Assembly: GCA_001776335.1 (NCBI GenBank)
Contig: MFAZ01000012.1
Location: 1 to 42,127, forward strand
Source: Candidatus Curtissbacteria bacterium RIFCSPHIGHO2_01_FULL_41_11
Lineage (GTDB): Bacteria; Patescibacteriota; Microgenomatia; Curtissbacterales; GWA2-41-24
Reading direction: 5' to 3'
DNA: 42,127 nt
Shown: in pieces, positions 5,951 through 40,008 of the stretch
Layout of the letters: every line of letters starts with the position of its first letter
Numbering within the stretch: the first letter of the stretch is position 1
The notes under the pieces: generated by a model
Database searches by the model: none
What the model was told of the DNA's origin: nothing
Seen by the model: only the letters and a program-made list of their open reading frames with translations
Program-made: the position numbers and the translations under genes

Positions 5951-5969
5951 AAGCTAACAAAGTTAGCTT
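5951..5969 (+). other. Perfect 8-bp stem / 3-nt loop hairpin between the VirB4-N-like gene and virB4
   Basis: AAGCTAAC (5951-5958) aaa GTTAGCTT (5962-5969). No U-tract follows, so it is not a canonical terminator. Confidence 0.4.
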
Positions 5970-5973
5970 CCAT

Positions 5974-6008
5974 AACTTTGAACTTTTAACTTTGAACTTT
6001 TAACTTTT
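5974..6008 (+). repeat. Heptamer tract AACTTTG/AACTTTT x5 immediately upstream of the virB4 start
   Basis: Units at 5974, 5981, 5988, 5995 and 6002. TGA/TAA at 5979, 5987, 5993 and 6001 cover all three frames. The tract ends 3 nt before the ATG at 6012. Confidence 0.85.
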
Positions 6009-6011
6009 TGT

Positions 6012-7907
6012 ATGAGTATCTTTAACCCTTTTTCCAAACCACAGCCGAAACAAACCCCATTAACTGCCAAAGAACAGCAATGGGCACAGACGCTGTCTGC
6101 TGGCACGGTTTCCGTCAAAGACATAATCGCCCCGCCGGCAATTGAAGTCGACTTTGATTTTCTCAAGGTAGGATCCACCTATTACCGCACATTGTTTGTT
6201 GTAGGTTATCCAAGATATGTTCAGGCAAATTGGCTTGCACCTTTAATTAACTTTGAACACACTCTGGAAATATCCATGTACACCTATCCTGTCGAGGCAA
6301 AAGGCGTTTTAGATGATCTCAGAAGAAAAATCACCGAAATGGAAGCAACCATCGCCACAGATATTCAACATGGTCGTCTCATCGACCCTGCGGTCCAAGC
6401 AGCTCTCGAGGATGCCCATATGCTTCAGGAAGAACTCGTCAAAGGTGCAGAACGATTCTTCCAGTTTGCCCTTTATGTCACAATCCCTGCAGATTCCATT
6501 GAAGAGTTGAATACAATCACCAAACAAGTTGAGTCTACGCTTGGCTCACTTCTGCTGGTCCCTAAACACGCCACACTTCAACAGGAAGACGCTTTCAAAA
6601 CCACCTTGCCTCAAGGCACAGACCATATTTATATCACCCGCAACATGGACACAACATCTCTGGCTACCACTTTCCCATTCATCTCCTCGTCTCTAACCTC
6701 AAACACAGGCGTTATGTACGGCATAAACGAACACAACGGTTCATTGGTTATTTTCGATAGGTTTAGCCAGGAAAATGCCAATTCCGTGATTTTTGCCAAA
6801 TCCGGAGCCGGAAAATCCTATCTGGTAAAACTCGAAGCCCTTAGGTCTCTCATGTTTGGAACAGAAGTAATTGTTATCGACCCCGAAGAAGAATACAAAA
6901 ATCTTTGCGAAGCAATTGGCGGGGAGTATATTTCCTTTAGCTTCAGTTCTCCGGCCAAAATCAACCCGTTTGATCTTTCTGGAATCTACGAAGAAGGTGA
7001 AAATGAACTCGGTCTTAAAATTCTTTCTCTCCATGGCCTGTTGAAAGTCATTATGGGAGAACTCACTCCCGCAGAAGATGCCATTTTAGACAGAGCCCTT
7101 GTTGCAACTTACAAAGCAAAGGGTATAACACCCGATCCGGCAACTCAACAGAATGAACCGCCTCTTATGGAAGACCTGTACAAGGCTCTTCTGGGAATGG
7201 AAGACCCCGGCGCCAAAGGCCTTGCCGACAGGCTTGAACGCTTCGTCAAAGGTTCACTTTTGGGAATTTTTAATCAGCAAAGCAATATCGATATCAAAAA
7301 CACTTTTACTGTTTTTTCAATTAAAGATCTTGAAGACGAACTTCGACCAATCGCCATGTTTCTGATTCTCGACTTTATTTGGACCAGAGTTAAAAACGAC
7401 ATCAGAAAACGTTTGCTCGTGGTGGACGAGGCTTGGTACATGCTTCAGTATCCTGACAGCGCAACGTTCATGTACAGTATCGCCAAACGCGCCAGAAAAT
7501 ATTATCTGGGACTAACTACAATTACCCAAGACGTCGAAGACTTTTTAAATACGGATTACGGCAAAGCAATTGTTACCAACTCCTCCATCCAGATTCTTTT
7601 AAAACAATCTCCGGCAGCCATCGATCAAGTAGCCGATGTCTTCTATCTCTCCGAAGGAGAAAAACACTTGCTTTTGGCAGCAGACATAGGAGAAGGCATA
7701 TTTTTTGCTGGCCCCAATCATGTTGCAATTCGTGTAATAGCTTCACAGGACGAACACTATTTGGTTACCACAAATCCTGAAGAAGTTATGGAAATGCAGA
7801 AAAAAGCCGAAGAAACCGAACAGCAGTTCCAACAGCAGCCTGCCTCGCCGACTGGCGGGCCTGCCTCGCCGACTGGCGGGCCTCCCCAAAATCCGCAAAC
7901 TCAATAG
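6012..7907 (+). CDS. virB4: VirB4/PrgJ-family type IV secretion ATPase
   Basis: Walker A FAKSGAGKSYLVK and Walker B RLLVVDEAWYML. N-terminal VirB4-type block YYRTLFVVGYPRYV. The C-terminal tail PASPTGGPASPTGGP is encoded by GC-rich 21-nt repeats. Confidence 0.85.
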   Translation: MSIFNPFSKPQPKQTPLTAKEQQWAQTLSAGTVSVKDIIAPPAIEVDFDFLKVGSTYYRTLFVVGYPRYVQANWLAPLINFEHTLEISMYTYPVEAKGVLDDLRRKITEMEATIATDIQHGRLIDPAVQAALEDAHMLQEELVKGAERFFQFALYVTIPADSIEELNTITKQVESTLGSLLLVPKHATLQQEDAFKTTLPQGTDHIYITRNMDTTSLATTFPFISSSLTSNTGVMYGINEHNGSLVIFDRFSQENANSVIFAKSGAGKSYLVKLEALRSLMFGTEVIVIDPEEEYKNLCEAIGGEYISFSFSSPAKINPFDLSGIYEEGENELGLKILSLHGLLKVIMGELTPAEDAILDRALVATYKAKGITPDPATQQNEPPLMEDLYKALLGMEDPGAKGLADRLERFVKGSLLGIFNQQSNIDIKNTFTVFSIKDLEDELRPIAMFLILDFIWTRVKNDIRKRLLVVDEAWYMLQYPDSATFMYSIAKRARKYYLGLTTITQDVEDFLNTDYGKAIVTNSSIQILLKQSPAAIDQVADVFYLSEGEKHLLLAADIGEGIFFAGPNHVAIRVIASQDEHYLVTTNPEEVMEMQKKAEETEQQFQQQPASPTGGPASPTGGPPQNPQTQ

Positions 7908-11415: not shown

Positions 11416-11990
11416 TGGCAGAATTCAATCTCATCCGGATTTCAAAACTTATTAAATCAGAACTGCTTCTAATAATTTTAGGAGTTCTCTCAATTACAAT
11501 TTTTTCTATAGCTGTCATAAGCTTCACAAAAAGAGGAAAGGCACCGCCACCCGCACAAACACCTTGGAACGAAAATATTTATGCAGGCCAAACAACTAAG
11601 CAGGAACTTGAAACGAAGCTGGGTACCCCCGAAAAGATTGAAGCAATTGATGAAGGGGTCGCTTATTTTTACCCCACGGAAGACAGGTACAGACCGGACA
11701 AAATAGAAATCAGTGGGGATACTGTTTCTATAATCAAAGAACAGGTTCTCGAGTCAGAAAAAGGGGGCTTGAATAATTATTTACAAAAATATGGTACACC
11801 ACAGGCAAAGTTATATGGCCCATTCGGAACAATTGCGCCTGGGCATTTCTGGGGGAATAACGGAATTATTGTATTTGGGAATGAACATGACGGTACTATA
11901 GTAGAAATTTGGTATTTTGCACCGACCAATTTAGAAAATTTTCTTGCGCAAAACACCAAACTGAAGACGGAAGAACCTCGAGGTTTTTAA
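11415..11990 (+). CDS. Small N-terminally membrane-anchored protein; last gene of the T4SS-like operon
   Basis: TGATG start/stop overlap with the upstream gene (11413-11417). One N-terminal TM helix (LLLIILGVLSITIFSIAVISF), then a ~150-aa soluble domain. I recognised no family. Confidence 0.6.
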   Translation: MAEFNLIRISKLIKSELLLIILGVLSITIFSIAVISFTKRGKAPPPAQTPWNENIYAGQTTKQELETKLGTPEKIEAIDEGVAYFYPTEDRYRPDKIEISGDTVSIIKEQVLESEKGGLNNYLQKYGTPQAKLYGPFGTIAPGHFWGNNGIIVFGNEHDGTIVEIWYFAPTNLENFLAQNTKLKTEEPRGF

Positions 11991-12289
11991 AAACTCCTAA
12001 ACCTCAAACTTCTCACAATCTTCTTCCCCAACGTCTCATTAATGTCTCGCATCAGCCCACCAGCGCGCATCTGAAGTTCGCTTGACATCAAACCGGGAGA
12101 CTTAACCGTCAACACCCCTTTTTTAAAAGACGTAGGTCTTGCCGTTTTTAAAACACTCTCCGGTAAATCACCGCAAACTTTTTTTAGCGAATCAAAAAAA
12201 GCGCGTCGTACATGAAGAGCGACAATTGCATCTGGGGTCTTGGATCGTTTTGGTAGTGTCTTGATAAGATCACCGACTTGGGTAAACAC
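11987..12289 (-). CDS. dciA: DUF721/DciA-like protein (putative replicative-helicase operator)
   Basis: 100 aa with a GTG start. SFKKGVLTVKSPGLMSSELQMRAGGLMRDINETLGKKIVRSLRF fits the DUF721 pattern. It sits in the classic position directly downstream of dnaN. Confidence 0.6.
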   Translation of the reverse strand: MFTQVGDLIKTLPKRSKTPDAIVALHVRRAFFDSLKKVCGDLPESVLKTARPTSFKKGVLTVKSPGLMSSELQMRAGGLMRDINETLGKKIVRSLRFRSF

Positions 12290-12301: not shown

Positions 12302-12343
12302 CTAGTTGCTAGTGGCTAGTTGCTAGTGGCTAGTGGCTAACTT
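12302..12343. repeat. Heptamer tract CTAGTTG/CTAGTGG x5 plus CTAACTT, filling the dnaN-dciA spacer
   Basis: Units at 12302, 12309, 12316, 12323, 12330 and 12337. The palindromic CTAG gives TAG in all six frames. The dnaN TAG stop (complement of 12337-12339) lies in the last unit. Confidence 0.9.
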
Positions 12344-13464
12344 TGCAGTCGGACCGGCATGACAATATGAAAGTAATCTCCTTCGTCAGGAATTGTAATT
12401 CGCCCGGGGTTCAAGCTTTCAATCATTTCGAAAAAAATATCATCGCTTTCGATAGATGATAAAACCTCGAGAAGATAACGAAAGTTGAAGGCAATTTCTC
12501 CTCCATTCCCGGTAAGTTCGATTTCCGAAGAGGCTTCATCCGACCCCACCTGATTGTTATTTGCAGAAACTGTCAAAATCCCTTTCGCCCCACCTTCAAG
12601 TTTTAGCTTAATAATGTTCCCTGAATCGCGGGCAAAAATAGACGCTACTCTTACCAGCCTTATCAGTTCTTCTCTAGAAATTTTGGCTTTTGAAGAAAAG
12701 CTCGTAGGGATAATTTTCTGCCAAGGGGGGAATTCACCCTCAATAAGTCTCGAGGTAAACTCCACATTGCCTATCCCAAAATTTACCTGATTCAAAGCAT
12801 CCGCCACAGTAACCAGGACAGGCTTGCCGCTTGCTTCTTCCCCAGCTTCACTGATTATTTTGAAAACCTCAAACAACGTTCTGGCGGGTGTTATTATCTT
12901 ACCCACAAAATCACCCTCTGCCGAAAACTGCTGGAAGCTTAACCTGTAACCATCGGTCGCTACCATTGAAAAGCTCTTTTTGGAAAACTCACACAGAACG
13001 CCCACAAGAGCCGGCCTCCCCTCGTCTTGTGAAGCCGAAAATGCCACCCTTAATATTGCTTTTGAAAACTCAAGTGCATCCAAAACCAGAGTTTTCCCTT
13101 TGTCTATTTTTGGTATCGCTGGGAAATCTTCAATAGGCATTGTCGCAAATCTCGCGCTAAATCTTTTGGAAGAAACCTTGACCTCCTCACCCAGTTTTTC
13201 AACAATCATCTCCCCTGGGGGTACCTGAGCGACAAATTCGGAAATTGGCCTCCCAGGGACCGTTGTTTTGCCTTCAACTTCAACATTGCATTCGGTATTT
13301 ACCCGCGTAGCAGTTTCCAAATCCGTCGAAAGAACCTCTATTTTCCCCTTGGAGGCAGAAATTAAAATGTTTGTGAGGATGGGCAGGTTTGCTTTTGTTT
13401 GAAGTGATTTATTTACGGAAACAAGCAGTTTGGAAAATTCTTCCTGGGAAATTTTAAATTTCAT
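12337..13464 (-). CDS. dnaN: DNA polymerase III beta sliding clamp
   Basis: MKFKISQEEFSKLLVSVNKSLQTKANLPILTNILISA..., with three-domain clamp length and a position downstream of dnaA. I prefer the ATG at 13464. The ORF-track start at 13521 is a GTG that would add 19 aa. Confidence 0.9.
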   Translation of the reverse strand: MKFKISQEEFSKLLVSVNKSLQTKANLPILTNILISASKGKIEVLSTDLETATRVNTECNVEVEGKTTVPGRPISEFVAQVPPGEMIVEKLGEEVKVSSKRFSARFATMPIEDFPAIPKIDKGKTLVLDALEFSKAILRVAFSASQDEGRPALVGVLCEFSKKSFSMVATDGYRLSFQQFSAEGDFVGKIITPARTLFEVFKIISEAGEEASGKPVLVTVADALNQVNFGIGNVEFTSRLIEGEFPPWQKIIPTSFSSKAKISREELIRLVRVASIFARDSGNIIKLKLEGGAKGILTVSANNNQVGSDEASSEIELTGNGGEIAFNFRYLLEVLSSIESDDIFFEMIESLNPGRITIPDEGDYFHIVMPVRLQS

Positions 13465-13521
13465 TTTTTCTTTGAGGATTCTTGTTGGGGCAGAAACATC
13501 GCCATTATATAGATTTTCCAC

Positions 13522-15420: not shown

Positions 15421-15672
15421 ATGTTTCCAAGATCCAGTAAAAACTTTCTTATAAAGTTTCCCAAGTCAAAAACCCGAAATGTTACGATTGTAGTCAAAAA
15501 AGCTATTGCCAAGAATGCGGTTGATAGAAACAGGATTAAAAGAATAACAAGAGAGGCTTTGAAAAAAATTGGAGACTTAGAAACAGGTATTGTTTTAATT
15601 CCAAAAAATAACATCGCCAAACTTAAAACTCAAGAAGTTTATGAAGAGCTCAGAAAAATAATTAAGAAATGA
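15421..15672 (+). CDS. rnpA: RNase P protein component (short form)
   Basis: NAVDRNRIKRITREAL matches the RnpA RNR motif. The conserved rpmH-rnpA-yidD order supports the call. At 83 aa it is short for the family. Confidence 0.75.
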   Translation: MFPRSSKNFLIKFPKSKTRNVTIVVKKAIAKNAVDRNRIKRITREALKKIGDLETGIVLIPKNNIAKLKTQEVYEELRKIIKK

Positions 15673-15878
15673 CACAAAAAATTGCCAAAAAACTTTTTCG
15701 ACTTTACCACCTTGTATTTGCCTCCACCAATGCAAATTGCCGGTTTCATCCTACATGTTCAAAATATGCGCTTGATGCAATCGAAAAATATGGAGTCGCA
15801 AAAGGAACTTATTTGGCTGCCGTAAGAATTTTAAATTGTCATCCTTTTACAAAAAGGCCAATTTACGATCCAGCATGA
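15669..15878 (+). CDS. yidD: Membrane protein insertion efficiency factor YidD
   Basis: CRFHPTCSKYALDAIEKYG...ILNCHPF. It overlaps the rnpA stop by 4 nt. Confidence 0.9.
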   Translation: MTQKIAKKLFRLYHLVFASTNANCRFHPTCSKYALDAIEKYGVAKGTYLAAVRILNCHPFTKRPIYDPA

Positions 15879-16690
15879 ACCCCTTTGATATTTTCCTAAC
15901 AACGCCGATTTTAAATCTTCTAATAGCAATCTATAAAATTTTGGCGTCCGCAAATATCCCGGGCACTCTTGGTTTGTCAATAATAATTCTAACAGCCATT
16001 ATCCGCTTTGCTCTTTGGCCGCTGACGTCGAGCCAGCTTAAAAGTACACAGAAAATGGCCGCTCTAAAACCTCACCTGGATAGAATAAAGACCGAGCACG
16101 GTCACGACAAGGTCCGCCATCAGGAAGAAGTCACAAAGCTCTATAAAGAACATGGAGTTAATCCCCTGGCTGGTTGTCTACCTCTCCTTTTGCAACTGCC
16201 GGTATTCTTTGCGTTATACAACGTGCTAAACAAAGTTGTAACTGCAAACGGAGACGATTTTGTTAAAACCATCAATAGCCAGCTATATTCCCCAGTTCTT
16301 CATTTAGACAAAGCACCCAGTACCTCATTCCTCACTTATGGTCTCCACAATAAGCCCAGCGAATGGCAGCAAGTTGGCATGCTAATACTTTTAGTTCCGC
16401 TTTTAACTGGAGCATTTCAGTTTATCCAGTCAAAAATGATTGTTGCACCAGCACCCAAAACAGCAGTTAAAAAAGCGGATGGCAAAGAAGGTATGGAAGA
16501 TACAATGGCTCAAGTTTCTTCCCAAATGACATTCCTGATGCCGGCAATGATCGCTTTTTTCTCTTACGGTTTCCCGCTCGGCCTTTCTCTTTACTGGAAT
16601 ACGTTTACCATAATTGGTATCATCCAGCAGTATGTAATTTCTGGTGCAGGCGCCCTCAACCAGTACCTGCCCAAAAAGTGGCAGAAATAA
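15875..16690 (+). CDS. yidC: Membrane protein insertase YidC (short Gram-positive-like form)
   Basis: ATGA overlap with the yidD stop (15875-15878). Motifs: LWPLTSSQLKSTQKMAALKPHLDRIK, GVNPLAGCLPLLLQLPVFFALY, LSLYW. The ORF-track start at 15836 would overlap yidD by 43 nt. Confidence 0.85.
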   Translation: MNPFDIFLTTPILNLLIAIYKILASANIPGTLGLSIIILTAIIRFALWPLTSSQLKSTQKMAALKPHLDRIKTEHGHDKVRHQEEVTKLYKEHGVNPLAGCLPLLLQLPVFFALYNVLNKVVTANGDDFVKTINSQLYSPVLHLDKAPSTSFLTYGLHNKPSEWQQVGMLILLVPLLTGAFQFIQSKMIVAPAPKTAVKKADGKEGMEDTMAQVSSQMTFLMPAMIAFFSYGFPLGLSLYWNTFTIIGIIQQYVISGAGALNQYLPKKWQK

Positions 16691-17286: not shown

Positions 17287-17378
17287 AATTGACCTAATTA
17301 TTCTAATTAACCTAATTGACCTAAATAAATTCTAATTCATAAATTTTTAAATTTCGACATTAGGATTTGAAAAATTAT

Positions 17379-17406
17379 TTAGAAATTAGAAATTAGCAAT
17401 TAGAAA
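17379..17406 (+). repeat. Heptamer tract TTAGAAA/TTAGCAA x4 upstream of the ligase-like gene
   Basis: Units at 17379, 17386, 17393 and 17400, giving a TAG every 7 nt and so covering all three frames. The ATG lies at 17426. Upstream, 17284-17345 is rich in CTAATT and TAATTGACCTAA repeats. Confidence 0.85.
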
Positions 17407-17425
17407 TTTATTCTGCACCTACTTA

Positions 17426-18625
17426 ATGTCCAAATCAGATCTCCTTTTCCTGGTATCTGTTGCCAGTATCCCCATTCAACTAAACAAATTTTTCTTCCCT
17501 GACTATTCTTTTGTATTTGGTCTGCCTGTAGACTACAGGGGCATTTCGATCTATCTATCCCATATTGCAATTGTTCTCTATCTGGTTGCATTCGTTCTGG
17601 AAAATCTTAAAAATCATAAAAAAATCTTCCAACGCTTCAAGCTATTCGCTCTGGTACTTTTTTTATTTAATTCATATTTATTCATCTCTTCTGCAATTTT
17701 CTCTGTTTCCAATGTCGCCTCGCTTATTTACAACATCAAGATTTTAACTCTAAGCCTTTTTTCATATGCTGCAGCAATAACCTTGTCTAAAAAACCAATA
17801 ACCAAACCACTAATAACAGTTATCAAGCTTTCCGTTTTCTGGGAATCGGCCCTGGTAGTCGCTCAGTTTCTGCTTCAGCGATCATTAAACCTTTGGCTTA
17901 TAGGTGAGAGAAGTTTCGATGTCTCCACACCGGGCATCGCCCACAGTCAGCTTTTCGGAAGTCAAATTCTTCGCCCATACGGTACATTTCCCCATCCAAA
18001 TGTTCTGGCCGCCTATCTCGTCATCTCTTTGATAATTTTAGGGAGTGATGCAAGAAGACAATTTTTGGCGACCGCTGCCCTCATTCTCACATTTTCCAGA
18101 AGTGCCTATCTTGTTGCAGCTTCGGCAATTTTGGCTTCGACCAGAAAAGTCCAATATCTGGCCGTGGAACTGGCTCTGGCAGCCGCCGCCGCTTTGTTTC
18201 TAACCAAACAGCTTCTCACATCCCAGCTCTCGTCAGTCGCCGAACGCCTTCTTTTAATTCAGTCGGCCCTAGATATTTCTCTCAAAAATCCTCTGTTTGG
18301 AGTTGGCAGCAATAATTTTATTCTTGAGCTTTCAAAACTTGATCTAACATCGCTTTCGCAAACCCGCCTCCTTCAGCCTGTCCATAATGTTTTTCTCCTC
18401 ATAGCTACCGAAAACGGTATCGTCGGACTCCTGCTCTTCACAGCCGTTCTTTTTGTTGCTTCAAAACACGTTAACTCCAAAACCAAAGCCCTTCTTTTCA
18501 TTGCCCTTCTGGCCTTCTCATCAATAGACCACTTCCTCTGGACCTTACACCAAGGCCAGATGATGCTATTCTTGATCCTTGCCTACATTGTGAGCAAAAA
18601 GCAATCTACCAAAAAGGGTGTATAA
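17426..18625 (+). CDS. O-antigen ligase / Wzy-like polytopic membrane protein
   Basis: About 10 hydrophobic helices. Wzy_C-like segment NPLFGVGSNNF...HNVFLLIATENGIVGLLLF. Confidence 0.65.
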   Translation: MSKSDLLFLVSVASIPIQLNKFFFPDYSFVFGLPVDYRGISIYLSHIAIVLYLVAFVLENLKNHKKIFQRFKLFALVLFLFNSYLFISSAIFSVSNVASLIYNIKILTLSLFSYAAAITLSKKPITKPLITVIKLSVFWESALVVAQFLLQRSLNLWLIGERSFDVSTPGIAHSQLFGSQILRPYGTFPHPNVLAAYLVISLIILGSDARRQFLATAALILTFSRSAYLVAASAILASTRKVQYLAVELALAAAAALFLTKQLLTSQLSSVAERLLLIQSALDISLKNPLFGVGSNNFILELSKLDLTSLSQTRLLQPVHNVFLLIATENGIVGLLLFTAVLFVASKHVNSKTKALLFIALLAFSSIDHFLWTLHQGQMMLFLILAYIVSKKQSTKKGV

Positions 18626-18636: not shown

Positions 18637-18873
18637 ATGACTAAAAAATTAGACTACATAATTAAATTAACCTACGATAAAGAATACAAAGGCTACGTTG
18701 CCGATGTTTTAAATCTTTACGGCTGCATGAGCCAAGGCAAAACCAAAAAAGAGGCCATCGCTAATGCCAGAAAAGCCATTAAAGCCTACATGGAGGCAAC
18801 AACCAAAAATGTTGAAAAATCTGCCCAACTGACTACAACCTCAGTTGACATGCCTTTGGCATTTGTTAACTAA
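18637..18873 (+). CDS. hicB: HicB-family antitoxin
   Basis: YKGYVADVLNLYGCMSQGKTKKEAIANARKAIKAYME fits the UPF0150/HicB-like fold. It is paired with a downstream hicA. Confidence 0.75.
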   Translation: MTKKLDYIIKLTYDKEYKGYVADVLNLYGCMSQGKTKKEAIANARKAIKAYMEATTKNVEKSAQLTTTSVDMPLAFVN

Positions 18874-19749: not shown

Positions 19750-21015
19750 GTGTTCAAAAAGGTTATCTACAACACCGGCGCTCAAGTTATTGGTAAAGCA
19801 ACTACCGCAACAATCACCCTTTTAATTACTTTAATCATCGGCCGCACCTTGGGCCCTGCAGGCTATGGAGATTTCACTAAAATTTTCGTTTTCGTTGGCT
19901 ATTTCTATACGCTTGCTGATTTTGGTCTTAACGCCATCTATATTAAAATTGCCAAAGAAAATGAATTACCACACCTCAAATCATTACTCGGGCTTCGCAT
20001 AATAATCGGAGTCACACTCGCACTGATTGCAACCGTCTCTGGCTTTCTGCTTCCTTACGATCAGGCTGCCTCAACCGGCTTTAGCCCTCTCGTCAAAGTT
20101 GGAATTGCCATCGCCTCCATAACCATCATTACCCAAGCTCTTTACCTTACTGCCAACGCCTTCTACCAAAAAATTCTGCGCTATGATCTTTCAACAATTT
20201 CCGCAGCCGTAAGCTACGTTTTTGTTTTATTAACAGCTGCTCTCGTCACCTTCACATCAAAATCCCTCCTCGGCTACACAATAGCCTATCCGATTGGCGG
20301 ATTCATTCTAGTTCTGGTTGCTTTTGCGATTATCAAAAAAAGAACAAAAACTCTCCCCACTCCGACATTCTCAAAAAAAGAAGTCATAAAATTTGCAAAA
20401 CCTGCTTGGCCGGTCGGCCTCGCGCTCATCTTCAACCTTATCTACTTTAGAATTGATGTTTTTATTCTTTCAAACTACAGACCAAGTACGGAAGTGGGGC
20501 TCTATGGTCTTGCCTACCAATTTTTTGAAGCAGCTCTTGCGATCCCAATTTTTTTCTCAAACGCCATCTACCCTCCACTGGCCAATTTTTACAAAGTAAG
20601 CAGGCAGCGCTTCCAAAAAGAAGTTAAAAACTGGCTTTTTATCCTAAGTGGAGTTTCCATCCTTCTCACCATCACAATGTTCTCGGTGTCTTTTTTTATC
20701 TCGGCAATTTTTGGGAGAAATTTTGAAGGCTCTATGCCGGCCCTCCAAATTCTCTCCATAGGCCTTCCATTTTTCTTTATCTCTGCTCTCTTGTGGCATT
20801 TATTGATTATTTACGACAAGCAGAAATACCTCACTTTGATTTATGCAGTTGGCGCCGTCTTCAACATCATCGCCAATCTTATTTTTATCCCAACCTACGG
20901 TTACATCGCAGCAAGCATCATCACTGTTATTTCGGAAGCGCTAATCACCCTGCTGCTTGTAATAGCGATTCGTTCCAAAAACAATTTAACAATGAAACAA
21001 TTTAACAATTATTGA
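19750..21015 (+). CDS. Wzx/MOP-family polysaccharide flippase
   Basis: GTG start and about 12-14 TM helices. N-terminus AQVIGKATTATITLLITLIIGRTLGPAGYGDF is typical of oligosaccharide flippases. The last 10 codons are encoded by an octamer tract. Confidence 0.7.
   Translation: MFKKVIYNTGAQVIGKATTATITLLITLIIGRTLGPAGYGDFTKIFVFVGYFYTLADFGLNAIYIKIAKENELPHLKSLLGLRIIIGVTLALIATVSGFLLPYDQAASTGFSPLVKVGIAIASITIITQALYLTANAFYQKILRYDLSTISAAVSYVFVLLTAALVTFTSKSLLGYTIAYPIGGFILVLVAFAIIKKRTKTLPTPTFSKKEVIKFAKPAWPVGLALIFNLIYFRIDVFILSNYRPSTEVGLYGLAYQFFEAALAIPIFFSNAIYPPLANFYKVSRQRFQKEVKNWLFILSGVSILLTITMFSVSFFISAIFGRNFEGSMPALQILSIGLPFFFISALLWHLLIIYDKQKYLTLIYAVGAVFNIIANLIFIPTYGYIAASIITVISEALITLLLVIAIRSKNNLTMKQFNNY
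20981..21012 (+). repeat. Octamer tract ACAATTTA/ACAATGAA x4 at the flippase 3' end / rnhA 5' end
   Basis: Units at 20981, 20989, 20997 and 21005. It encodes NNLTMKQFNNY. Confidence 0.8.
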
Positions 21016-21017
21016 AT

Positions 21018-21428
21018 ATGCTTAATATTTTTTGCGACGGAGGGGCACGGGGTAATCCAGGACCGGCAGCTTATGGTTTTGTGATAAAAGAAAATGGTAA
21101 GACAATAAAAAAAGAAGGTAAAACACTCGGGATTGCAACCAATAATTTTGCCGAGTATACTGCCGTTATCGAAGCGCTTAAGTGGCTTTTGGATGGCTAC
21201 GAAGGTCAGGACCTTAACTTTTTTTTGGATTCGCAACTGGTAGCCTCCCAGCTGTCAGGCATTTACAAAGTTAAAAATGCCCAAATACGCGAACTGGTTC
21301 TTAAGGTAAAAAATCTTGAAACTAGCTTTGGTCAGATTAAATATATGTATATTCCAAGAGAACAAAACAAAGAAGCTGATGCAATGGTAAACAGAGCACT
21401 CGACTCAGAATTAGTAATTAGAAATTAG
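21018..21428 (+). CDS. rnhA: Ribonuclease HI
   Basis: CDGGARGNPGPAAYGFVI, NNFAEYTAVIEAL, LDSQLV, REQNKEADAMVNRAL. I prefer the ATG at 21018 over the TTG at 21012. The C-terminal SELVIRN and the TAG stop are encoded by heptamers at 21411-21431. Confidence 0.85.
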   Translation: MLNIFCDGGARGNPGPAAYGFVIKENGKTIKKEGKTLGIATNNFAEYTAVIEALKWLLDGYEGQDLNFFLDSQLVASQLSGIYKVKNAQIRELVLKVKNLETSFGQIKYMYIPREQNKEADAMVNRALDSELVIRN

Positions 21429-21431
21429 AAA
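21411..21431 (+). repeat. Heptamer tract TTAGTAA/TTAGAAA x3 forming the rnhA 3' end and stop
   Basis: Units at 21411, 21418 and 21425. Same family as 17379-17406. Confidence 0.8.
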
Positions 21432-21440
21432 TTCTCAGAC

Positions 21441-28365: not shown

Positions 28366-28776
28366 CTACAAATCCGGATCCAGATTTTTAGCAGTTTCTC
28401 TAGACTGTTCGGCTAAATCACTTTCCCCAAGTCCTTCATACAGGACCGAAAGTCTTAACCATGCCCCGGCATAATCCGGCCTCGCATATATAACGTCTCT
28501 TGTCTTTTTAATCTCTGCATCAATCGCCTCTTTATCAATCATTAAATCATTTTTACCCTCCATCTTCGTCTGCTGCCCCAATACTTTTCTTTTACTCGGG
28601 TTGGGTTTTTCGCTTATCGCCATCCCAAAAGCAGCCAAAATTAAAAGTACCAGAACTATGCGAAAAGCTGCGGGGAAAAATGCGCTAATTATGCGGGTAA
28701 TATTGTTTACCCCACGAAATTTTAATGTAGTGGGGCGGAGATTATGCGGAGAAAGCAAATTGTTAAATTGTATCAT
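28366..28776 (-). CDS. Membrane-anchored protein with a TPR-like C-terminus
   Basis: One TM (FRIVLVLLILAAFGMAI). C-terminal AGAWLRLSVLYEGLGESDLAEQSRETAKNLDP is TPR-like. I prefer the ATG at 28776. The ORF-track start at 28821 is a TTG inside the octamer array. Confidence 0.5.
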   Translation of the reverse strand: MIQFNNLLSPHNLRPTTLKFRGVNNITRIISAFFPAAFRIVLVLLILAAFGMAISEKPNPSKRKVLGQQTKMEGKNDLMIDKEAIDAEIKKTRDVIYARPDYAGAWLRLSVLYEGLGESDLAEQSRETAKNLDPDL

Positions 28777-28830
28777 TGTTAAATTGTTATTAAATTCTAC
28801 AGCAATACAGCAATATAACAATATAACAAT
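28759..28830. repeat. Inverted pair of 4-unit octamer arrays (ATTGTTAA-type, then ACAGCAAT/ATAACAAT-type)
   Basis: Left arm 28759-28790, an 8-nt centre, right arm 28799-28830. The arms are about 23/32 complementary. Confidence 0.75.
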
Positions 28831-28849: not shown

Positions 28850-30934
28850 TCATAGAGGCCATTTTTCCAACATAATAGATTTTCTATGTACATCAAATTG
28901 TTGATAAATTTCCTCGGTTAAAAACGGCATAAATGGATGAAGAATAATCATAACTTGTTTAAGAACATACTCCAAAGTTGCTTGGGCCTCTTCTCTGCTG
29001 GTCTTGGACTTCTCAATATATTTATCTGCAAAGTCATGCCATACAAAATTATAAATGTCTTCAACAGCCAGATGGAGTTCAAGCGATTCCAGATTTTTCG
29101 TCACCCTCGCTACTAGTCTCTCCAACTTGTCCTGTATCCAAATATCATCCTTATGTCTGTTGTCTGTAGTCGGTAGTCTGTTGTCTGTAGTCCTGAGTTC
29201 GATAACAAATCGTGCAATATTTCTGATTTTTGTCGCAAAATTCCTGAAATTTTTCCCGCGCTCATCTAGTGTTTGCTTGGAAACACGCCCGTCTCTTCCG
29301 GGGATGCTGTATGTATAAAGTGCCATTCTTGTTGCATCCACTCCCCACTGCCCGATTAAATAACCGGGCTCGATTCCGTTGCCCAGGGATTTACTAAACT
29401 TCCTCCCCTGCAAATCTCGCAGCATTCCGTGGAAAAACATAGTCTTAAATGGTTCCATTTTTGTAAAATAATTGGAAATCATAATCATTCTCGCAATCCA
29501 CAAAAATTTAATTTCCGGTGCTGATATTTCAAAATCCCAGGGGAAATACCTATCCAACAAATTTTCAACTTTCAACTTTCCACTCTCAACTTTGTTTAGC
29601 CAACCTAACGTGGATAGAGGCCAAAGTCCAGAGGAAAACCATGTATCCAAAACCTGCTCGTCTTGTTTCCACCCAACACCGGGAGACTTTAAAGAAACCT
29701 TTATTTCTTTCCCCCGATACCATACAGGAATTCTATGTCCCCACCAAAGAGATCTGGAAATACACCAATCATGAATACCTTTTAACCACTCGATCAAAAT
29801 TTTCTTATAGTTTCCGGGTAGAAATTTAATTGCATCCTTGTTAATTAGTTGAATAGCCTCCTTCGCAATCTCCTCGACTTTTACAAACCACTCCTCTGAA
29901 ATAATTGGCTCAACTACGCTTTTACACCTTTCGCAAACAGCGACGTTATGAACATAATCCTCTTCCTTTACCAATATGCCTTTTTCTTTAAGCTCAGGAA
30001 TCATTGCCTCTCGGGCTTCAGTGACTTTCATTCCCGCATACTTTCCAGCAGCATCAGTTAATCTTCCCTCTTTATTTATTACATTGATAATCGGCAAATT
30101 ATGCCTTTTGCCGATTTCATAGTCGATAAAATCATGGCCTGGTGTAACTTTAATAACACCAGTTCCAAAGTCCGGATCAACAACATCGTCTGCGACAACC
30201 CTCATCTTCTTTTTGCCGTTTAATGTTTCAATTTCAAATTCTTTCCCTACATAGTCCTTATACCTTTTGTCTTTAGGATTTACCGCCATTGCAGTGTCAC
30301 CAAATTTTGTTTCAGGTCTGACGGTTGCGAGAGTCAATGGTCCATACTTCAAGTAGTAAAGTTTCTCCTTCCTTTCTTCATACTCCACCTCCACATCTTC
30401 AATCGCAGTCCGGTCGCGTGGACACCATTGCACAATATATGGTCCTTTATAAATTAAGCCGGCGTCATAATATGTTTTAAATTCTTCAAAAACAGCTCTT
30501 TGGCATTTTTCTTCCAGTGTAAAAACCTCTCGGCTCCAGTCGGCAGACAGACCCATCATTCTCCAACTACCGGATAGCGATTTATAAATCTCGTCTTTAA
30601 ATTTCCATGCCAACTCCAGCCATTTTTCCCGCCCTAATTTTTGTTTAGAAAGCCCCTGTTTCGCTAAGTGTTTATCAAATGTTGACTCAAATTGAATGCC
30701 TGCATGATCTACACCTGGTAACAATAAAACATCAAATCCCTGCAGTCGCCTAAAACGCGCAACAGCATCCAGTATTGAATGCTGCATTGCGTGTCCGAGA
30801 TGTAATTCTCCAGTTAAATTGGGTGGAGGAATCAGCAAAGAATATTTTTTCTTGTTGGAGTTCGGATCCGCAGAGAATAATTTTTCTTTCTCCCAAAATT
30901 CATAAATTTCGGATTCTTTTTTAAATTTGTTCAT
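28850..30934 (-). CDS. valS: Valyl-tRNA synthetase (short form lacking the C-terminal coiled coil)
   Basis: HIGH-type LHLGHAMQH, KMSKS-type KFSKSLGN, ValRS editing-domain hallmark TGVIKVTPGHDFIDYEIG. It contains repeat-derived insertions at 29154-29195 and 29566-29593. Confidence 0.9.
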   Translation of the reverse strand: MNKFKKESEIYEFWEKEKLFSADPNSNKKKYSLLIPPPNLTGELHLGHAMQHSILDAVARFRRLQGFDVLLLPGVDHAGIQFESTFDKHLAKQGLSKQKLGREKWLELAWKFKDEIYKSLSGSWRMMGLSADWSREVFTLEEKCQRAVFEEFKTYYDAGLIYKGPYIVQWCPRDRTAIEDVEVEYEERKEKLYYLKYGPLTLATVRPETKFGDTAMAVNPKDKRYKDYVGKEFEIETLNGKKKMRVVADDVVDPDFGTGVIKVTPGHDFIDYEIGKRHNLPIINVINKEGRLTDAAGKYAGMKVTEAREAMIPELKEKGILVKEEDYVHNVAVCERCKSVVEPIISEEWFVKVEEIAKEAIQLINKDAIKFLPGNYKKILIEWLKGIHDWCISRSLWWGHRIPVWYRGKEIKVSLKSPGVGWKQDEQVLDTWFSSGLWPLSTLGWLNKVESGKLKVENLLDRYFPWDFEISAPEIKFLWIARMIMISNYFTKMEPFKTMFFHGMLRDLQGRKFSKSLGNGIEPGYLIGQWGVDATRMALYTYSIPGRDGRVSKQTLDERGKNFRNFATKIRNIARFVIELRTTDNRLPTTDNRHKDDIWIQDKLERLVARVTKNLESLELHLAVEDIYNFVWHDFADKYIEKSKTSREEAQATLEYVLKQVMIILHPFMPFLTEEIYQQFDVHRKSIMLEKWPL
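29154..29195. repeat. Period-7 tract / 21-nt tandem duplication inside valS (encodes TTDNRLP-TTDNRH)
   Basis: TGTCTGT TGTCTGT AGTCGGT AGTCTGT TGTCTGT AGTCCTG. The 12-mer TTGTCTGTAGTC recurs at 29160-29171 and 29181-29192. Confidence 0.8.
29566..29593. repeat. Heptamer tract CAACTTT x4 (one variant unit) inside valS
   Basis: Units at 29566, 29573, 29580 (CCACTCT) and 29587. It encodes KVESGKLKVEN between the conserved STLGW and YFPWD blocks. Confidence 0.8.
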
Positions 30935-30960
30935 ATTATTTTTCCAATTGAAAATATTTT

Positions 30961-30992
30961 TAGCAATTTAACAATTCAGCAATATAACAACT
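30961..30992. repeat. Octamer tract TAGCAATT TAACAATT CAGCAATA TAACAACT upstream of valS
   Basis: Four units, beginning 26 nt beyond the valS start codon (30934). Confidence 0.8.
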
Positions 30993-31235
30993 TAATTTTT
31001 TCTTTGAAAAATTGGTTTCTTTCACGTGCGAGTAAATTTTACCACTATTATTTTTAAAATACGTCTCGTTAATTTACCCCATCTGGCACGTGCAAAATTT
31101 TCTCAAAATCTGAGTCGGTGTCTGCCCCGCTAAAAGTTTGTGGTTTTAGGCTTAATGTGTCACGAAAGTTATCAACAAATTTTAAACTGAGTGACCGTTT
31201 CTATATATTTTTTACGGGGTTGATAACTCTCCATT

Positions 31236-32270
31236 TTAAAAGTAGAGTCCGGGATTTGCAGAGATACTCAATGGATTGACAAAGCGTTTTTGCCAATAGG
31301 CTGCAGTCGCAATCATTGCTCCGTTATCTACAGACAAGTTTTTTCCCGGGAAAAGAACCTGTAAATTATTCTTTCGCCCTTCACTAACCAGAGCATTTTC
31401 CAGAGCTGCATTTGCTGCAACGCCTCCCCCAACAACCACATATTTCACTTTATACTTTTCAGCAGCTCTTAAAGTTTTTTTAACCAGTACATCACAAACT
31501 GCGTTTTGAAATTCATATGCAACTTCAGGATATCTGTTCTCTGGAAACTTGTTTCTAGAAACTAAATTAACAACTGCGGTTTTAAGTCCAGAAAAAGAAA
31601 AATCAAAATTATCTTCAGCTATCATCGGTCTTGGAAACTTAACGTTTCTAGTTTCAAGTTTCCAGTTTCCAGTTTGAAAATTGCTTGCAATTTTCTCGAT
31701 CTCCGGTCCGCCCGGGTAAGAAAAGCCTAAAACTCGTGCCACTTTGTCAAAAGCTTCACCACAGGCGTCGTCTAAAGTTCCACCCAACCATTGAAATTTA
31801 TTGTGGTCTTTCATGAGAATCAAGTCCGTGTGTCCACCGGAAACAATCAAAGCTATTAGAGGAAACTCAGGAAGTTTAAAGTTTCCAGTGTCTAGTTTTT
31901 CGTTATTGATCCAATTGGCATAAACATGAGCAACCAAATGGTTAACAGCAACCAGTGGTTTATTAAAAACAAGCGCTAAAGTTTTAGCAGTCTCAACACC
32001 AATTAAAAGCGAACCAATAAGGCCCGGTCCATAAGAAACGGCGATTGCATCAACATCTTGCATTTCAAGACCAGACTCACTAAAAGCTCGATCAACGGTG
32101 GGAATAATTGCTTTAACTTGCTCCCTTGCTGCAACTTCCGGAACGATTCCACCATATGCTTTGTGCATTTCACTTGAGCTTGCCACAACATTCCCAAGAA
32201 TTTCTCTGCCGTTACGTACGATTCCAACACCAGTTTCATCACAAGTACTCTCAATACCTAATATAATCAT
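31236..32270 (-). CDS. tsaD: tRNA N6-adenosine threonylcarbamoyltransferase
   Basis: ILGIESTCDETGVGIV, HLVAHVYANW, VSGGHT, FSFSGLKT. It carries two heptamer-derived insertions. Confidence 0.9.
   Translation of the reverse strand: MIILGIESTCDETGVGIVRNGREILGNVVASSSEMHKAYGGIVPEVAAREQVKAIIPTVDRAFSESGLEMQDVDAIAVSYGPGLIGSLLIGVETAKTLALVFNKPLVAVNHLVAHVYANWINNEKLDTGNFKLPEFPLIALIVSGGHTDLILMKDHNKFQWLGGTLDDACGEAFDKVARVLGFSYPGGPEIEKIASNFQTGNWKLETRNVKFPRPMIAEDNFDFSFSGLKTAVVNLVSRNKFPENRYPEVAYEFQNAVCDVLVKKTLRAAEKYKVKYVVVGGGVAANAALENALVSEGRKNNLQVLFPGKNLSVDNGAMIATAAYWQKRFVNPLSISANPGLYF
31644..31678. repeat. Heptamer tract GTTTCNA x5 inside tsaD
   Basis: GTTTCTA GTTTCAA GTTTCCA GTTTCCA GTTTGAA. It encodes FQTGNWKLETRN. 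Confidence 0.85.
31874..31901. repeat. Second heptamer tract inside tsaD
   Basis: GTTTAAA GTTTCCA GTGTCTA GTTTTTC. It encodes EKLDTGNFKL, just before the conserved PLIALIVSGGHT. Confidence 0.75.
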
Positions 32271-36088: not shown

Positions 36089-36979
36089 ATGAGACTGAAA
36101 CAGGCAATCCTAGCCACACTCGCATACCACGACATTTTTGATTACCCCTTAACAGCACAGCAGATACATAGGTATTTAATAATCAAAGCGAGTAAAACTG
36201 CACTCGAAAAAGAATTAGCCGTATTATTTCCTGCAAAGGAGTTCTACTCACTCACCAACCGTCAAAAAATAGCACTGATAAGAAAAAAACGCCAGAAGTA
36301 CTCAAATAAAAAGCTCAAACGAGCTTACTTCTACGCAAGCTTTCTTAAGCAGATTCCAAGTATAAAAATGGTTGCAATCTCAGGCGCACTTGCCATGGAA
36401 AACAGTCACAAAAGTGACGACATAGACCTTGTCATTGTCACCGCCAAAAACACCCTTTGGACTACAAGATTTCTTGCAAATATTCTCCTGTTTCCGTTCA
36501 AACGTAAGCCGCATTCTAGTCGACTAATCACTAGCCACTATGCACTAGCCACTAACAATAAAGCCTGCCTTAATATTTTCTTGGATGAATCCAACCTGAA
36601 AATTTCTCCGAGAAATATTTACACAGCCCACGAACTCTGCCAGCTAAAATCATTAATAGATATAAATAAAACCTATAGTAGATTAATCAAAGCTAACCTG
36701 TGGATTTACAAGTATTTACCAAATTGGGAACCTGAAGCTGAAAGACAATCGAGGAACGTCGATCGCAGACTGCGTCTAAAAGCTTTAGTCTTTAGTCGTT
36801 CAGCATTAGTCCTTGAAAACTTTCTCAAAAAATTTCAACTATTTTATATGAGAAAAAGAATTACCTCAGAGCAGATAGGGGAGCATCAACTATTTTTCCA
36901 CCCGTCAAATACTCAAGAGTGGGTTTTAAAAGAATATCAAAAGAGGTTAAAAAAGCTAAAATTGGCAAAGTCTTTTTAA
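36089..36979 (+). CDS. Putative nucleotidyltransferase-fold protein (Pol-beta-like)
   Basis: ISGALAMENSHKSDDIDLVIV resembles the GS-x-DxD nucleotidyltransferase motif. It contains two heptamer-tract insertions. Confidence 0.4.
   Translation: MRLKQAILATLAYHDIFDYPLTAQQIHRYLIIKASKTALEKELAVLFPAKEFYSLTNRQKIALIRKKRQKYSNKKLKRAYFYASFLKQIPSIKMVAISGALAMENSHKSDDIDLVIVTAKNTLWTTRFLANILLFPFKRKPHSSRLITSHYALATNNKACLNIFLDESNLKISPRNIYTAHELCQLKSLIDINKTYSRLIKANLWIYKYLPNWEPEAERQSRNVDRRLRLKALVFSRSALVLENFLKKFQLFYMRKRITSEQIGEHQLFFHPSNTQEWVLKEYQKRLKKLKLAKSF
36516..36557. repeat. Heptamer tract (CTAG/GCCAC family) inside the NTase-like gene
   Basis: CTAGTCG ACTAATC ACTAGCC ACTATGC ACTAGCC ACTAACA. It encodes SSRLITSHYALATN. 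This is the same family as 12302-12343, in the opposite orientation. Confidence 0.85.
36783..36817. repeat. Second heptamer tract inside the NTase-like gene
   Basis: CTTTAGT CTTTAGT CGTTCAG CATTAGT CCTTGAA. It encodes ALVFSRSALVLE. Confidence 0.75.
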
Positions 36980-39540: not shown

Positions 39541-39572
39541 ATAACAATTTAACAATATAGCAATATAACAAT
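39541..39572 (+). repeat. Octamer tract ATAACAAT TTAACAAT ATAGCAAT ATAACAAT directly upstream of groES
   Basis: Four units ending 7 nt before the ATG at 39580. TAA/TAG falls in every frame. No Shine-Dalgarno is present. Confidence 0.85.
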
Positions 39573-39906: not shown

Positions 39907-40008
39907 TTTATATTAATTTTAAATTTGGCTTAGCCAATTTAAAATTGTCCAATTGGGGAAAGAAAAATATTAAAAGGAAAACCGTAGGTTGTCCTTTTAA
40001 AGTGAAAT

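Follow-up and report, generated by a model that had tools for sequence, protein, structure and literature searches.

Tandem repeats with a unit of seven nucleotides (nt) are well known in prokaryotes. According to two later papers that cite it (PMC4679880 and PMC4692102), Mrazek (2007) found heptanucleotides to be the most abundant class of long simple sequence repeats (SSRs) in most prokaryotic genomes, and a polymerase contact of about 7 nt was proposed to favour slippage; the short tandemly repeated repetitive (STRR) sequences of cyanobacteria are heptamers as well (Mazel 1990, cited in PMC4692102). Rehm (2015; PMC4692102) described G-rich intergenic arrays, GGGAATC in Xanthomonas and GGGGAYT in Nostoc, some of them arranged as inverted pairs. 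In marine Beggiatoaceae, some cyanobacteria and Bacteroidetes, MacGregor (2015; PMC4679880) reported arrays of two to six copies of TAACTGA, which lie in forward orientation just before starts lacking a Shine-Dalgarno (SD) sequence, carry stops in all forward frames, overlap ends of open reading frames (ORFs) by at most 18 nt, and for which a role in translation through S1, cold-shock (Csp) or CsrA-like proteins was proposed. Heptads of the type TTTTGAT are bound by ToxR at the ctxAB promoter (bioRxiv 10.1101/2021.05.14.444153). Here we analyse heptamer tracts at gene boundaries in a stretch of 42,127 nt (hereafter the window) from Candidatus Curtissbacteria bacterium RIFCSPHIGHO2_01_FULL_41_11 (contig MFAZ01000012.1). 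The window is a chromosomal origin region with rnpA, dnaA, dnaN, dciA, yidC and jag, together with groES/EL and the genes of CTP synthase, valyl-tRNA synthetase (ValRS) and TsaD, and the named DnaN homologues closest to it, at 57-64% identity, belong to Candidatus Curtissbacteria (Microgenomates, Candidate Phyla Radiation, CPR). The literature that we searched contained no report of heptamer arrays in CPR bacteria, and CPR genomes apparently were not covered by the heptanucleotide and STRR surveys, to judge from the papers citing them. The phenomenon itself is already known, and this uncultured Curtissbacteria-like lineage is an added example of it. We argue that the tracts are probably heptanucleotide SSRs born by slippage, which open tight gene junctions, are filtered by the reading frame and, when close to a start, are kept as A-rich unstructured leaders in an SD-poor lineage.

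A first-pass annotation of the window had named four tracts, and all of them lie where it placed them, with a sequence that agrees everywhere with its description. Tandem Repeats Finder and a lag-7 scan give copy numbers of 5.4 (dnaN-dciA), 5.1 (virB4), 4.3 (Wzy_C) and 3.6 (rnhA), and the neighbouring genes were identified with Pfam. Between dnaN (12337-13521, minus strand) and dciA (11987-12289, minus strand), the tract at 12302..12343 fills the spacer; read on the gene strand (minus) it consists of five direct CCACTAG/CAACTAG units plus a degenerate TAAACTA unit, and on the plus strand it appears as 5.4 copies of CTAGTKG at 12302-12339. The dnaN stop (CTA on the plus strand, 12337-12339) is inside the last plus-strand unit and forms the first triplet of the array on the gene strand, while the dciA GTG (12287-12289) follows 12 nt past the array end. 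On the plus strand, five direct copies of (T/G)AACTTT (AACTTTG/AACTTTT) at 5974..6008 end 3 nt before the ATG (6012) of a gene for a TraG/VirB4-type P-loop ATPase (6012-7907). At 17379..17408, 4.3 sense-oriented copies of TTAGAAA on the plus strand lie 17-19 nt before the ATG (17426) of a gene for a Wzy_C protein (17426-18625). The fourth tract, 3.6 plus-strand copies of TTAGTAA/TTAGAAA at 21409..21433, encodes the tail of RNase H (21012-21428), ...ELVIRN, and its TAG stop (21426-21428), and ends 7-9 nt before the ATG (21441) of a gene of 188 amino acids (aa), here called g188. The four starts downstream of these tracts were validated by the conservation of the N-termini in relatives.

To place the tracts in a wider frame, the window was compared with three sets of sequences, whose contigs and loci bear L-numbers (L002, L010, L061 and so on): more than 12 contigs from the same population as the window, at 96-100% identity; graded relatives at 81, 65, 64 and 59% DnaN identity (L010 at 81%, L011 at 65%, L012 at 64%); and 80 more metagenomic origin loci, which bring the total with the window to about 1.08 Mb. 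Synteny around dnaN is kept across these loci. When contigs of species-representative genomes were scanned with DnaN, the sole match was an unrelated locus from Lentisphaeraceae (31% identity), so that these genomes include no close relative. Arrays were called with one fixed criterion (lag-p self-matches with a score of at least 10, lower periods excluded), Tandem Repeats Finder serving as separate detection, and the control consisted of 200 dinucleotide-preserving shuffles of the window. Seven period-7 arrays are found in the window against a mean of 0.04 in the shuffles, and the other periods from 4 to 15 give zero to two. Across the lineage, period 7 is represented by 60 non-identical arrays, where about one would be predicted from the shuffle rate of the window, and period 14 by 16; the other periods yield 15 (period 6), 19 (8), 19 (9) and 18 (12), and at most five for each of the rest. 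Loci with a DnaN identity of 43% or less (about 200 kb) hold three period-7 arrays only. The excess of period 7 is thereby confirmed as real, far beyond chance and specific to this period.

These arrays are also unevenly placed. With coding sequence defined outside the window by a crude longest-ORF caller, which assigns 90% of the DNA to genes, 52 of the 60 period-7 arrays fall in the roughly 10% of non-coding DNA; period 8 behaves similarly (15/19), and arrays of periods 6, 9 and 12 are mostly within ORFs. In co-directional spacers, 33 of 40 arrays are at most 16 nt from the upstream stop or at most 26 nt from the downstream start, against 21.6 for random placement, and adjacency to the stop alone accounts for 17 observed against 11.8 expected. 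Several unit families (TTAGAAA, TAACAAT(N), CNACTAG) recur in 52 kb of this genome and across relatives, all in an origin-proximal sample. The dnaA-dnaN context had suggested origin elements such as a DNA unwinding element or iterons; we rejected these as a general explanation because similar arrays occupy VirB4, Wzy, RNase H, GroES/GroEL, YidC and PrgI junctions and the inside of ORFs up to 24 kb from dnaN.

Among the described systems, TAACTGA comes closest, and the annotation, which knew of no described function, has to be corrected in that a similar phenomenon is on record: MacGregor (2015; PMC4679880) reports nearly the same observations. In both cases, two to six tandem heptamers are overwhelmingly intergenic, stand in forward orientation before starts of unrelated genes without SD, overlap only the last codons of the upstream ORF, and enter ORFs only as units without a sense-strand stop; both show occasional inverted copies and direct arrays without predicted RNA structure. 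Forward orientation is clear here for TTAGAAA-type tandems (17:2) and weak when all units are pooled (25:14). The gap to the start is wider: the modal value is about 1 nt for TAACTGA and 7-9 nt here, the window tracts ending 3, 12, 17 and 7 nt before their validated starts. TAACTGA itself was not found among the arrays of this lineage, the nearest units being CAACTGA/CCACTGA in L012 and TAACTTT in the window, and no single unit dominates (CCACTAG, AACTTTK, TTAGAAA, AACAATT, AAATCCT and others), TTAGAAA being the commonest. About half of the arrays described here abut stops, inverted pairs occur frequently, the host belongs to the CPR, and comparative data on turnover and constraint are added. 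With long heptanucleotide SSRs and STRRs in general, our arrays have in common head-to-tail 7-nt tandems, a period-7 excess, a mostly non-coding location, in keeping with a unit length that three does not divide, length steps of whole units and a proposed origin by slippage; several unit families per genome are described for those repeats, and several recur here in the origin-proximal sample. Our arrays differ in being short (3-5 units) and degenerate and in their close association with start and stop codons at very compact junctions. Like the arrays of Rehm (2015), they are intergenic and include inverted pairs able to form stem-loops, but GGGAATC and GGGGAYT are G-rich and quadruplex-forming, whereas the units here are 78% A+T and G-poor.

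How such arrays come into being can be followed across relatives at the same junctions. At dnaN-dciA, L010 and L011 read 'AGT TAG TG(T/G)TAAACTG... GTG', that is, a spacer of 15-16 nt with the seed TAAACTG only and no array; the window reads 'AGT TAG (CCACTAG CCACTAG CAACTAG CCACTAG CAACTAG) TAAACTA ATGCT GTG', with five units beside the local seed, and L012 carries CAACTGA CCACTGA CATTTGA at the same spot. The virB4 junction is overlapping or very short in relatives, with a single TAACTTG seed in L010, and most relatives also have a short or overlapping junction at Wzy, g188 and DUF4012. Just past the dnaN stop, more than 12 different units are met according to the species, among them AACAATT, AAATYCT, AACAAGA, CATTTGA, CTGGTAA, TCAAAGT and GACTACC, and often an inverted copy of the unit stands just before dciA; a few species have a minimal spacer. 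Indels between relatives measure exactly 7 nt (L020 versus L038/L044; L059 versus L060). Between strains, a difference is seen before groEL: a strain at 99.1% (L097:1-60) has GTCTACC GACTACA GACTACA ... GTAGACC GTAGACA GTAGACA, 6 nt before the ATG, and the same site in the window (39960-40008) is occupied by unrelated sequence that has only a CCGTAG seed in common with that strain. Scaffold L095 (9930-10000) joins both pre-groEL variants across a run of N. The suggestion of the first-pass annotation that the tracts might be slippage relics survives in this form, as an origin, on account of the 7-nt indels, the local seeds and in-frame insertions of 21-24 nt.

Once present, the arrays change slowly. 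More than 12 independent assemblies at 96-100% (L002-L009, L098-L101) carry the window's arrays without any difference, the only change near any of them being a 1-nt insertion beside the rnhA tract; the strain contigs at 99.5-100% would alone be too close to inform on repeat stability. At 86-92% dnaN identity, relatives have equal unit numbers and differ by point substitutions only. Shared spacers that bear an array are much more alike than the third codon positions of dnaN: 93.6% versus 71% (L038/L044), 93.2% versus 67% (L042/L077), 91% versus 40% (L020/L038) and 95% versus 52% (L059/L060). Overall, shared arrays are 92-100% identical, against 55-80% for third positions and 79-91% for other alignable intergenic DNA; in this control the window versus L010/L012 was left unscored, the loci being oppositely oriented. 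The conservation of the non-array intergenic DNA led us to reduce an initial claim of exceptional constraint. On the other hand, many arrays have no counterpart in a relative (for example 0/97 nt, L013 versus L021). A fair summary of the alignments would be turnover by presence and absence, followed by constraint comparable to or slightly above that of other intergenic DNA. The arrays are neither neutral junk nor free-running microsatellites; they are gained, lost and resized in whole units over evolutionary time and are not hypermutable.

The latter point bears on the idea that the arrays are contingency loci, hypermutable SSRs whose copy number would switch or tune genes for surface and secretion functions (VirB4 and type IV secretion-like, Wzy, flippase, DUF4012). 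In Haemophilus, the 7-bp promoter repeats of hmw1A and hmw2A are phase-variable, and their copy number sets the level of expression. Tandem heptamers upstream of a gene are shared with these repeats and with the ToxR heptads, several of our arrays precede envelope or secretion genes, whole-unit indels separate species, the pair before groEL is present or absent between strains at about 99%, and contigs L006 and L007 end, and L097 starts, inside arrays. Still, copy number shows no polymorphism among strains at 96-100%, where a whole array pair before groEL is the only difference, and the unit number stays constant at 86-92% dnaN identity. Degeneracy of the arrays damps slippage, repeats longer than k should break contigs in any de Bruijn assembly, and dciA, groES, yidC and RNase H-adjacent genes are preceded by arrays as well. 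With arrays 3-19 nt from starts, a promoter role of the hmw or ToxR kind would fit only if the mRNAs were leaderless. We give the contingency idea very little credence.

The most conspicuous property of the four named tracts is that every unit contains a stop triplet, and the first-pass annotation had accordingly considered them as stop-phased insulators acting in all frames. Such insulators, of which no natural family is described, would be selected to terminate translation at operon junctions whatever frame a ribosome is in. In the lineage, eight arrays indeed supply or overlap the stop codon of the upstream gene, and a stop triplet is present on the sense strand in 37 of 52 intergenic arrays (71%), compared with 43% of random intergenic 7-mers. 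However, the antisense strand is equally stop-rich (38/52, 73%), letter-shuffled units predict 32.8 of 52 (63%), and 15 of 52 intergenic arrays (29%) have no sense-strand stop at all. Stops being equal on both strands and near the level set by composition, there is therefore neither strand specificity nor an excess beyond composition. Like arrays also reside within ORFs, and relatives manage the same junctions with overlapping stop and start codons or with spacers of about 15 nt. Finally, an array of at least three heptamers is read in all three phases, so that stop-bearing units are confined outside ORFs or to their extreme 3′ end; since they can survive only there, the stops at junction arrays represent a filter and not a design, and this filter by itself would yield the association. 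MacGregor (2015; PMC4679880) drew the same point on the reading frame for TAACTGA. The stop triplets are incidental, a by-product of A/T-richness and of the reading-frame filter, and a designed all-frame signal is not supported. The filter together with units of 78% A+T explains why every intergenic tract of the first list has stops in all frames. We consider selected insulation the least credible of the explanations weighed here, and it can be set aside.

What passes the filter can be seen inside genes. The initial list of tracts was correct as far as it went, but it had overlooked four in-ORF heptamer arrays and a period-8 family. Two of these arrays are in the ValRS gene (minus strand): 5.4 copies of CTACAGA/CAACAGA at 29155..29192, which encode RTTDNRLPTTDNRH, have no sense-strand stop and fall in a linker that is variable in comparison with Thermus thermophilus ValRS, and 4.4 copies of GTTGAAA at 29563..29593, which encode VESGKLKVENL and coincide with an insertion of 8 residues relative to the T. 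thermophilus enzyme (1gax). In the TsaD gene (minus strand), 4.6 copies of GAAACTG at 31644..31675 encode QTGNWKLETRN and match a loop insertion of about 7-8 residues with respect to solved TsaD structures. The fourth, CACTAGC CACTATG CACTAGC CACTAAC at 36529..36554 (plus strand; detected by the scan as period 14), is built from the reverse complement of the dnaN-tract unit and belongs to an ORF (36089-36979) with a weak Polbeta nucleotidyltransferase match and nothing else; the sole unit in which TAG would fall in frame reads TAT. Every in-ORF array leaves its translated frame free of stops, and most of the units have none in any sense-strand frame. By a rough estimate, the approximately 60-fold lower density of arrays in ORFs is about what would be expected if a net length divisible by three, freedom from in-frame stops and tolerance of a 7-residue insertion were all required.

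The annotation had also remarked that the genes behind the tracts lack an SD. This is true at all four, but nothing can be argued from it: in the window, no more than 3 of 32 genes are preceded by an SD core (4 nt, at -18..-4); in the lineage, cores are found before 14% of starts, compared with 13% for a control window placed further upstream, and strong cores of GGAGG type are enriched near a small minority of starts; and dciA and virB4 have no SD in L010 and L011 either, where the array is absent. Because the lineage is SD-poor and the array-free relatives also do without, the absence of SD is uninformative on the tracts. As RNA, the direct arrays are predicted to be unstructured (z=+0.34 and an open centroid for the dnaN tract, z=-0.47 for virB4, z=-0.14 for rnhA), and the virB4 array stays unpaired in the fold, the only hairpin being a separate one of 8 bp, AAGCTAAC-AAA-GTTAGCTT, at 5951..5969 (plus strand), which holds one inverted copy CAAAGTTA of the array unit. 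An intrinsic (Rho-independent) terminator was ruled out, given the unfolded direct arrays and the lack of excess of terminator-like sites in the window (20 against 20.5 in shuffles; none on the sense strand at arrays). Neither did a scan of the window for consensus promoters exceed shuffles or return anything convincing at the tracts, and no Rfam family reached its gathering score anywhere in the window. The units of the arrays rank among the words that are most frequent in the leaders of the lineage (mean 86th percentile). The annotation's alternative of an A/U-rich unstructured site is retained in part, as a plausible leader role, in view of the unfolded direct arrays and of the sense orientation of TTAGAAA-type units near starts: start-proximal arrays may plausibly serve as A-rich unstructured 5′ leaders.

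The scenario that we favour would thus have three stages. A local 7-nt word is duplicated head-to-tail in whole-unit steps, as the comparison of relatives shows, and a tight or overlapping junction becomes a spacer of 40-140 nt, the array being sometimes copied in inverted orientation to give an imperfect hairpin. The reading frame then acts as a filter, and units free of in-frame stops also survive within ORFs as in-frame loop insertions of about 21-24 nt, of which the ValRS and TsaD arrays are examples. Finally, direct arrays beside a start would be kept sense-oriented as a 5′ leader that is rich in A, poor in G and unstructured; where very few genes use an SD, such a leader would permit or mildly favour initiation independent of the SD, and established arrays would be held by purifying selection like other intergenic DNA and not act as hypermutable switches.

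Several observations weigh against this scenario, or at least against its generality. The preference of slippage for 7 nt is a published conjecture. Roughly half of the arrays abut stops and not starts, and many are inverted pairs with significant hairpin potential, so one function need not fit all arrays. The A>T bias of the sense strand over all unit types (25:14) is not significant, and among start-proximal arrays (15:7) it merely equals the general A-richness of leaders (505:260); we have dropped it as a sign of function. All the sampled sequence lies within about 10-30 kb of dnaN and is origin-proximal only, and starts called outside the window by the longest-ORF rule are biased toward positions just after stop-rich arrays. 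A further point concerns TTAGAAA: arrays of this class number 8 of 49, where a purely local-seed model expects 0.23. This excess hints at sequence-specific selection or at a sequence-specific generating process, and single-copy TTAGAAA has a positional profile without a sharp peak.

The TTAGAAA family is at the centre of the main rival, according to which the units, above all TTAGAAA/TTTAGRA and TAACAAT(N)/TTGACA-like ones, are docking arrays for a trans-acting factor that controls translation or transcription. Candidates would be the ribosome (through S1 or the distal 3′ tail of the 16S rRNA), an RNA-binding protein of KH/R3H or cold-shock type, or a DNA-binding regulator of OmpR/ToxR type. 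Besides the excess just mentioned, TTAGAAA-like tandems (at least two units) within 40 nt of a start are oriented 17 sense to 2 antisense (p=7e-4 against 0.5), 9 of the 17 end 7-9 nt before the start, and they precede at least ten different genes, the 7-9-nt gap recurring at five junction types (flippase, YidC, g188, PrgI and VirB4). In front of Wzy, unit and position are shared by the window and L012 in spite of a DnaN identity of 64%, and the unit is present in L061 as well; at the g188 junction, TTAGAAA-like arrays occur in L040, L054/L055, L060/L064 and L061, and an AACAATT array in L012. Unit-specific variants are kept between species, shared arrays are as conserved as first plus second codon positions, and a TTGACA/TTAACA (-35-like) or TGTCA core is present in many of the units, of period 7 and period 8 alike. 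Precedents are the proposal of MacGregor for TAACTGA and the binding of ToxR to TTTTGAT heptads. Beside the cluster, in the window and in relatives, a gene at 550-1917 encodes a protein of 455 aa whose N-terminal part resembles ATPases and which ends in a winged-helix domain of OmpR/PhoB type (Trans_reg_C, E=1e-20); the synteny of this gene with the PrgI/TraC/VirB4-like cluster extends to L011 and L013. In other bacteria, tandem direct repeats are bound by regulators of this class. Against docking, the units vary widely by locus and, at the same junction, by species, as illustrated by the more than 12 units that follow dnaN; close relatives do without arrays; single-copy TTAGAAA, although the sixth of 2103 word classes in leaders and twice as frequent as its complement, shows no positional peak; and the orientation is only marginally beyond the A-rich leader background of 66% (p=0.02). 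Of all the observations, this family comes closest to suggesting a role that depends on the sequence, as a hint and nothing beyond that. We regard docking arrays as unlikely overall, while taking them more seriously than any other rival.

A more specific form of docking would make TTAGAAA-type, and perhaps TAACAAT-type, arrays a lineage-specific surrogate of the SD, that is, multi-copy and register-tolerant sites about 7-9 nt before starts, acting by pairing with the 16S 3′ tail or by recruitment of S1 or a KH/R3H protein. The distal 3′ tail of 16S rRNA is …CCUCCUUUCUA-3′ in many bacteria and is complementary to UAGAAA. A search of the loci for a 16S 3′ end found no rRNA in any of the sequences. 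If the surrogate were real, the period of 7 nt would be functional, and new junction arrays would be selected for independent translation of the downstream gene once an overlapping junction opens. We hold this version to be quite improbable.

Leaving docking for the slippage scenario, the arrays copied in inverted orientation deserve separate consideration. In the window, the Wzy tract is the right arm of such a pair, whose left arm in the Jag-Wzy spacer is a period-9 array (17287..17328, plus strand) with 4.7 copies of AATTRACCT, the words TTCTAATT and CCTAATT being complementary to the TTAGAAA array. On its sense strand, this spacer has a more stable fold than shuffled sequence (z=-2.2), which does not hold for the antisense strand (z=-0.5). 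A period-8 pair at 28757..28830 forms an imperfect hairpin of about 30 bp on either strand (z=-1.5 and -1.9), and dnaN-dciA spacers with inverted pairs in relatives reach z=-3.5 to -6.3. Which of the two strands folds better varies between spacers, and this argues against one strand-specific RNA structure; the asymmetry between the strands of a hairpin (A·C versus G·U) was considered as evidence for a sense-RNA structure and rejected as inconsistent between spacers.

Such hairpins could also be read as mobile or processed elements, of the kind of miniature inverted-repeat transposable elements and repetitive extragenic palindromes (MITE/REP-like) or relatives of rRNA intervening sequences, inserted at junctions, the direct arrays of the window being half or decayed copies. 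The frequency and significant folding of inverted pairs at dnaN-dciA speak for it, as do the sharp presence/absence and the high identity despite saturated flanks (the 91% of the L020 and L038 spacers against 40% at third positions). So does a cargo gene: in L061 (11146-11610), a gene of about 124 aa of the 23S_rRNA_IVP family (PF05635, E=5e-26) is found between dnaN and dciA, in the loop between an array and its inverted copy, and similar insertions downstream of dnaN are present in L012 (11141-11600), L075, L036 and L049, the L012 ORF being seemingly cut short by an early stop. In 23S rRNA, intervening sequences that form stem-loops can carry a gene for the 23S_rRNA_IVP four-helix bundle. 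The likeness consists in an IVP-family ORF within the loop of a long imperfect inverted repeat; the L061 element lies instead between dnaN and dciA, its arms are heptamer arrays, and the window has no such cargo. No full-length element recurs at several loci in the sequence examined, where only units of 7-8 nt are shared, and no target-site duplication or transposase was seen. The dnaN, virB4 and rnhA tracts of the window are direct only and derive from local seeds, and the strand preference of the hairpins is inconsistent. A mobile origin appears to us clearly improbable. In L012, the two spacers flanking the virB4-like gene (15610-15910 and 17735-18090) each contain a hairpin-like element GGTGAGATCCTTG...AAGGTCTCAYC with further repeats of 8-9 nt, perhaps members of a small family of dispersed repeats.

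Knowledge of heptamer arrays goes back to 1990 in cyanobacteria, and in 2007 they were recognised as the commonest class of long SSRs in prokaryotes. What is new here is the host group, the CPR, with compact genomes and almost no use of the SD; a comparative series of array birth, from seed words through insertion into overlapping or about 15-nt junctions to exact 7-nt gain and loss and to constraint like that of other regulatory DNA; and the TTAGAAA family, with its strong sense orientation at an SD-like distance from starts. These points make the hypothesis of a translation leader concretely testable. The arrays also matter for the curation of CPR genomes, in that they fragment metagenome assemblies and, with stops in all frames, bias the start calls of longest ORFs.

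The period-8 family that accompanies the heptamers is dispersed in the window, with the cores TAACAAT, TAGCAAT and CAGCAAT. On the plus strand, 3.9 copies of AAACAATT/TAACAATG at 20979..21010 make up the C-terminal tail encoded by the flippase gene as well as the region of the rnhA start, and four sense-oriented copies of ATAACAAT/TTAACAAT/ATAGCAAT at 39541..39572 end 7 nt before the GroES ATG (39580). The inverted pair at 28757..28830, mentioned above, is composed of (AAATTGTT)n followed by (ATAACAAT/ACAGCAAT)n and is situated 3′ of the ValRS stop, and an array of the type TTTAGCAA/TTTAACAA at 30959..30995 separates the TsaD stop from the ValRS start. The family is encountered at the dnaN-dciA or virB4 junctions of L043, L054/L055, L056, L071 and L073, and units of the 28757..28830 type fill the dnaN-dciA spacer in L054, L071, L056 and L043. 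About 3 kb past the right end of the window on the same scaffold, at L095:15140-15172, there is a TGTTTCT array (4.7 copies) inside a PEGA-domain ORF, which indicates that arrays continue away from the origin-proximal genes.

Other features of the region are of a different nature. A perfect 21-nt tandem repeat (2.2 copies, 7838-7883) at the 3′ end of the virB4-like gene encodes PASPTGG PASPTGG, and contig L004 ends inside it. The TraC-like protein (4863-5927) has 354 aa in the window versus 340 aa in the 99.5% strain L003, the difference corresponding to a 42-nt indel in its proline-rich C-terminal region. Gene calls of the identical contig L002 place a HicB-like antitoxin/HicA toxin pair at 18637-19097, between the Wzy_C and flippase genes; the pair is absent from the corresponding position in the relatives L012 and L013. 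The cumulative GC skew drops monotonically over the whole window (1-42127), rnpA-dnaA-dnaN included, with no inflection at the presumed origin, and the lowest G+C content, 35%, is reached at 15-16 kb, between dnaA and yidC.

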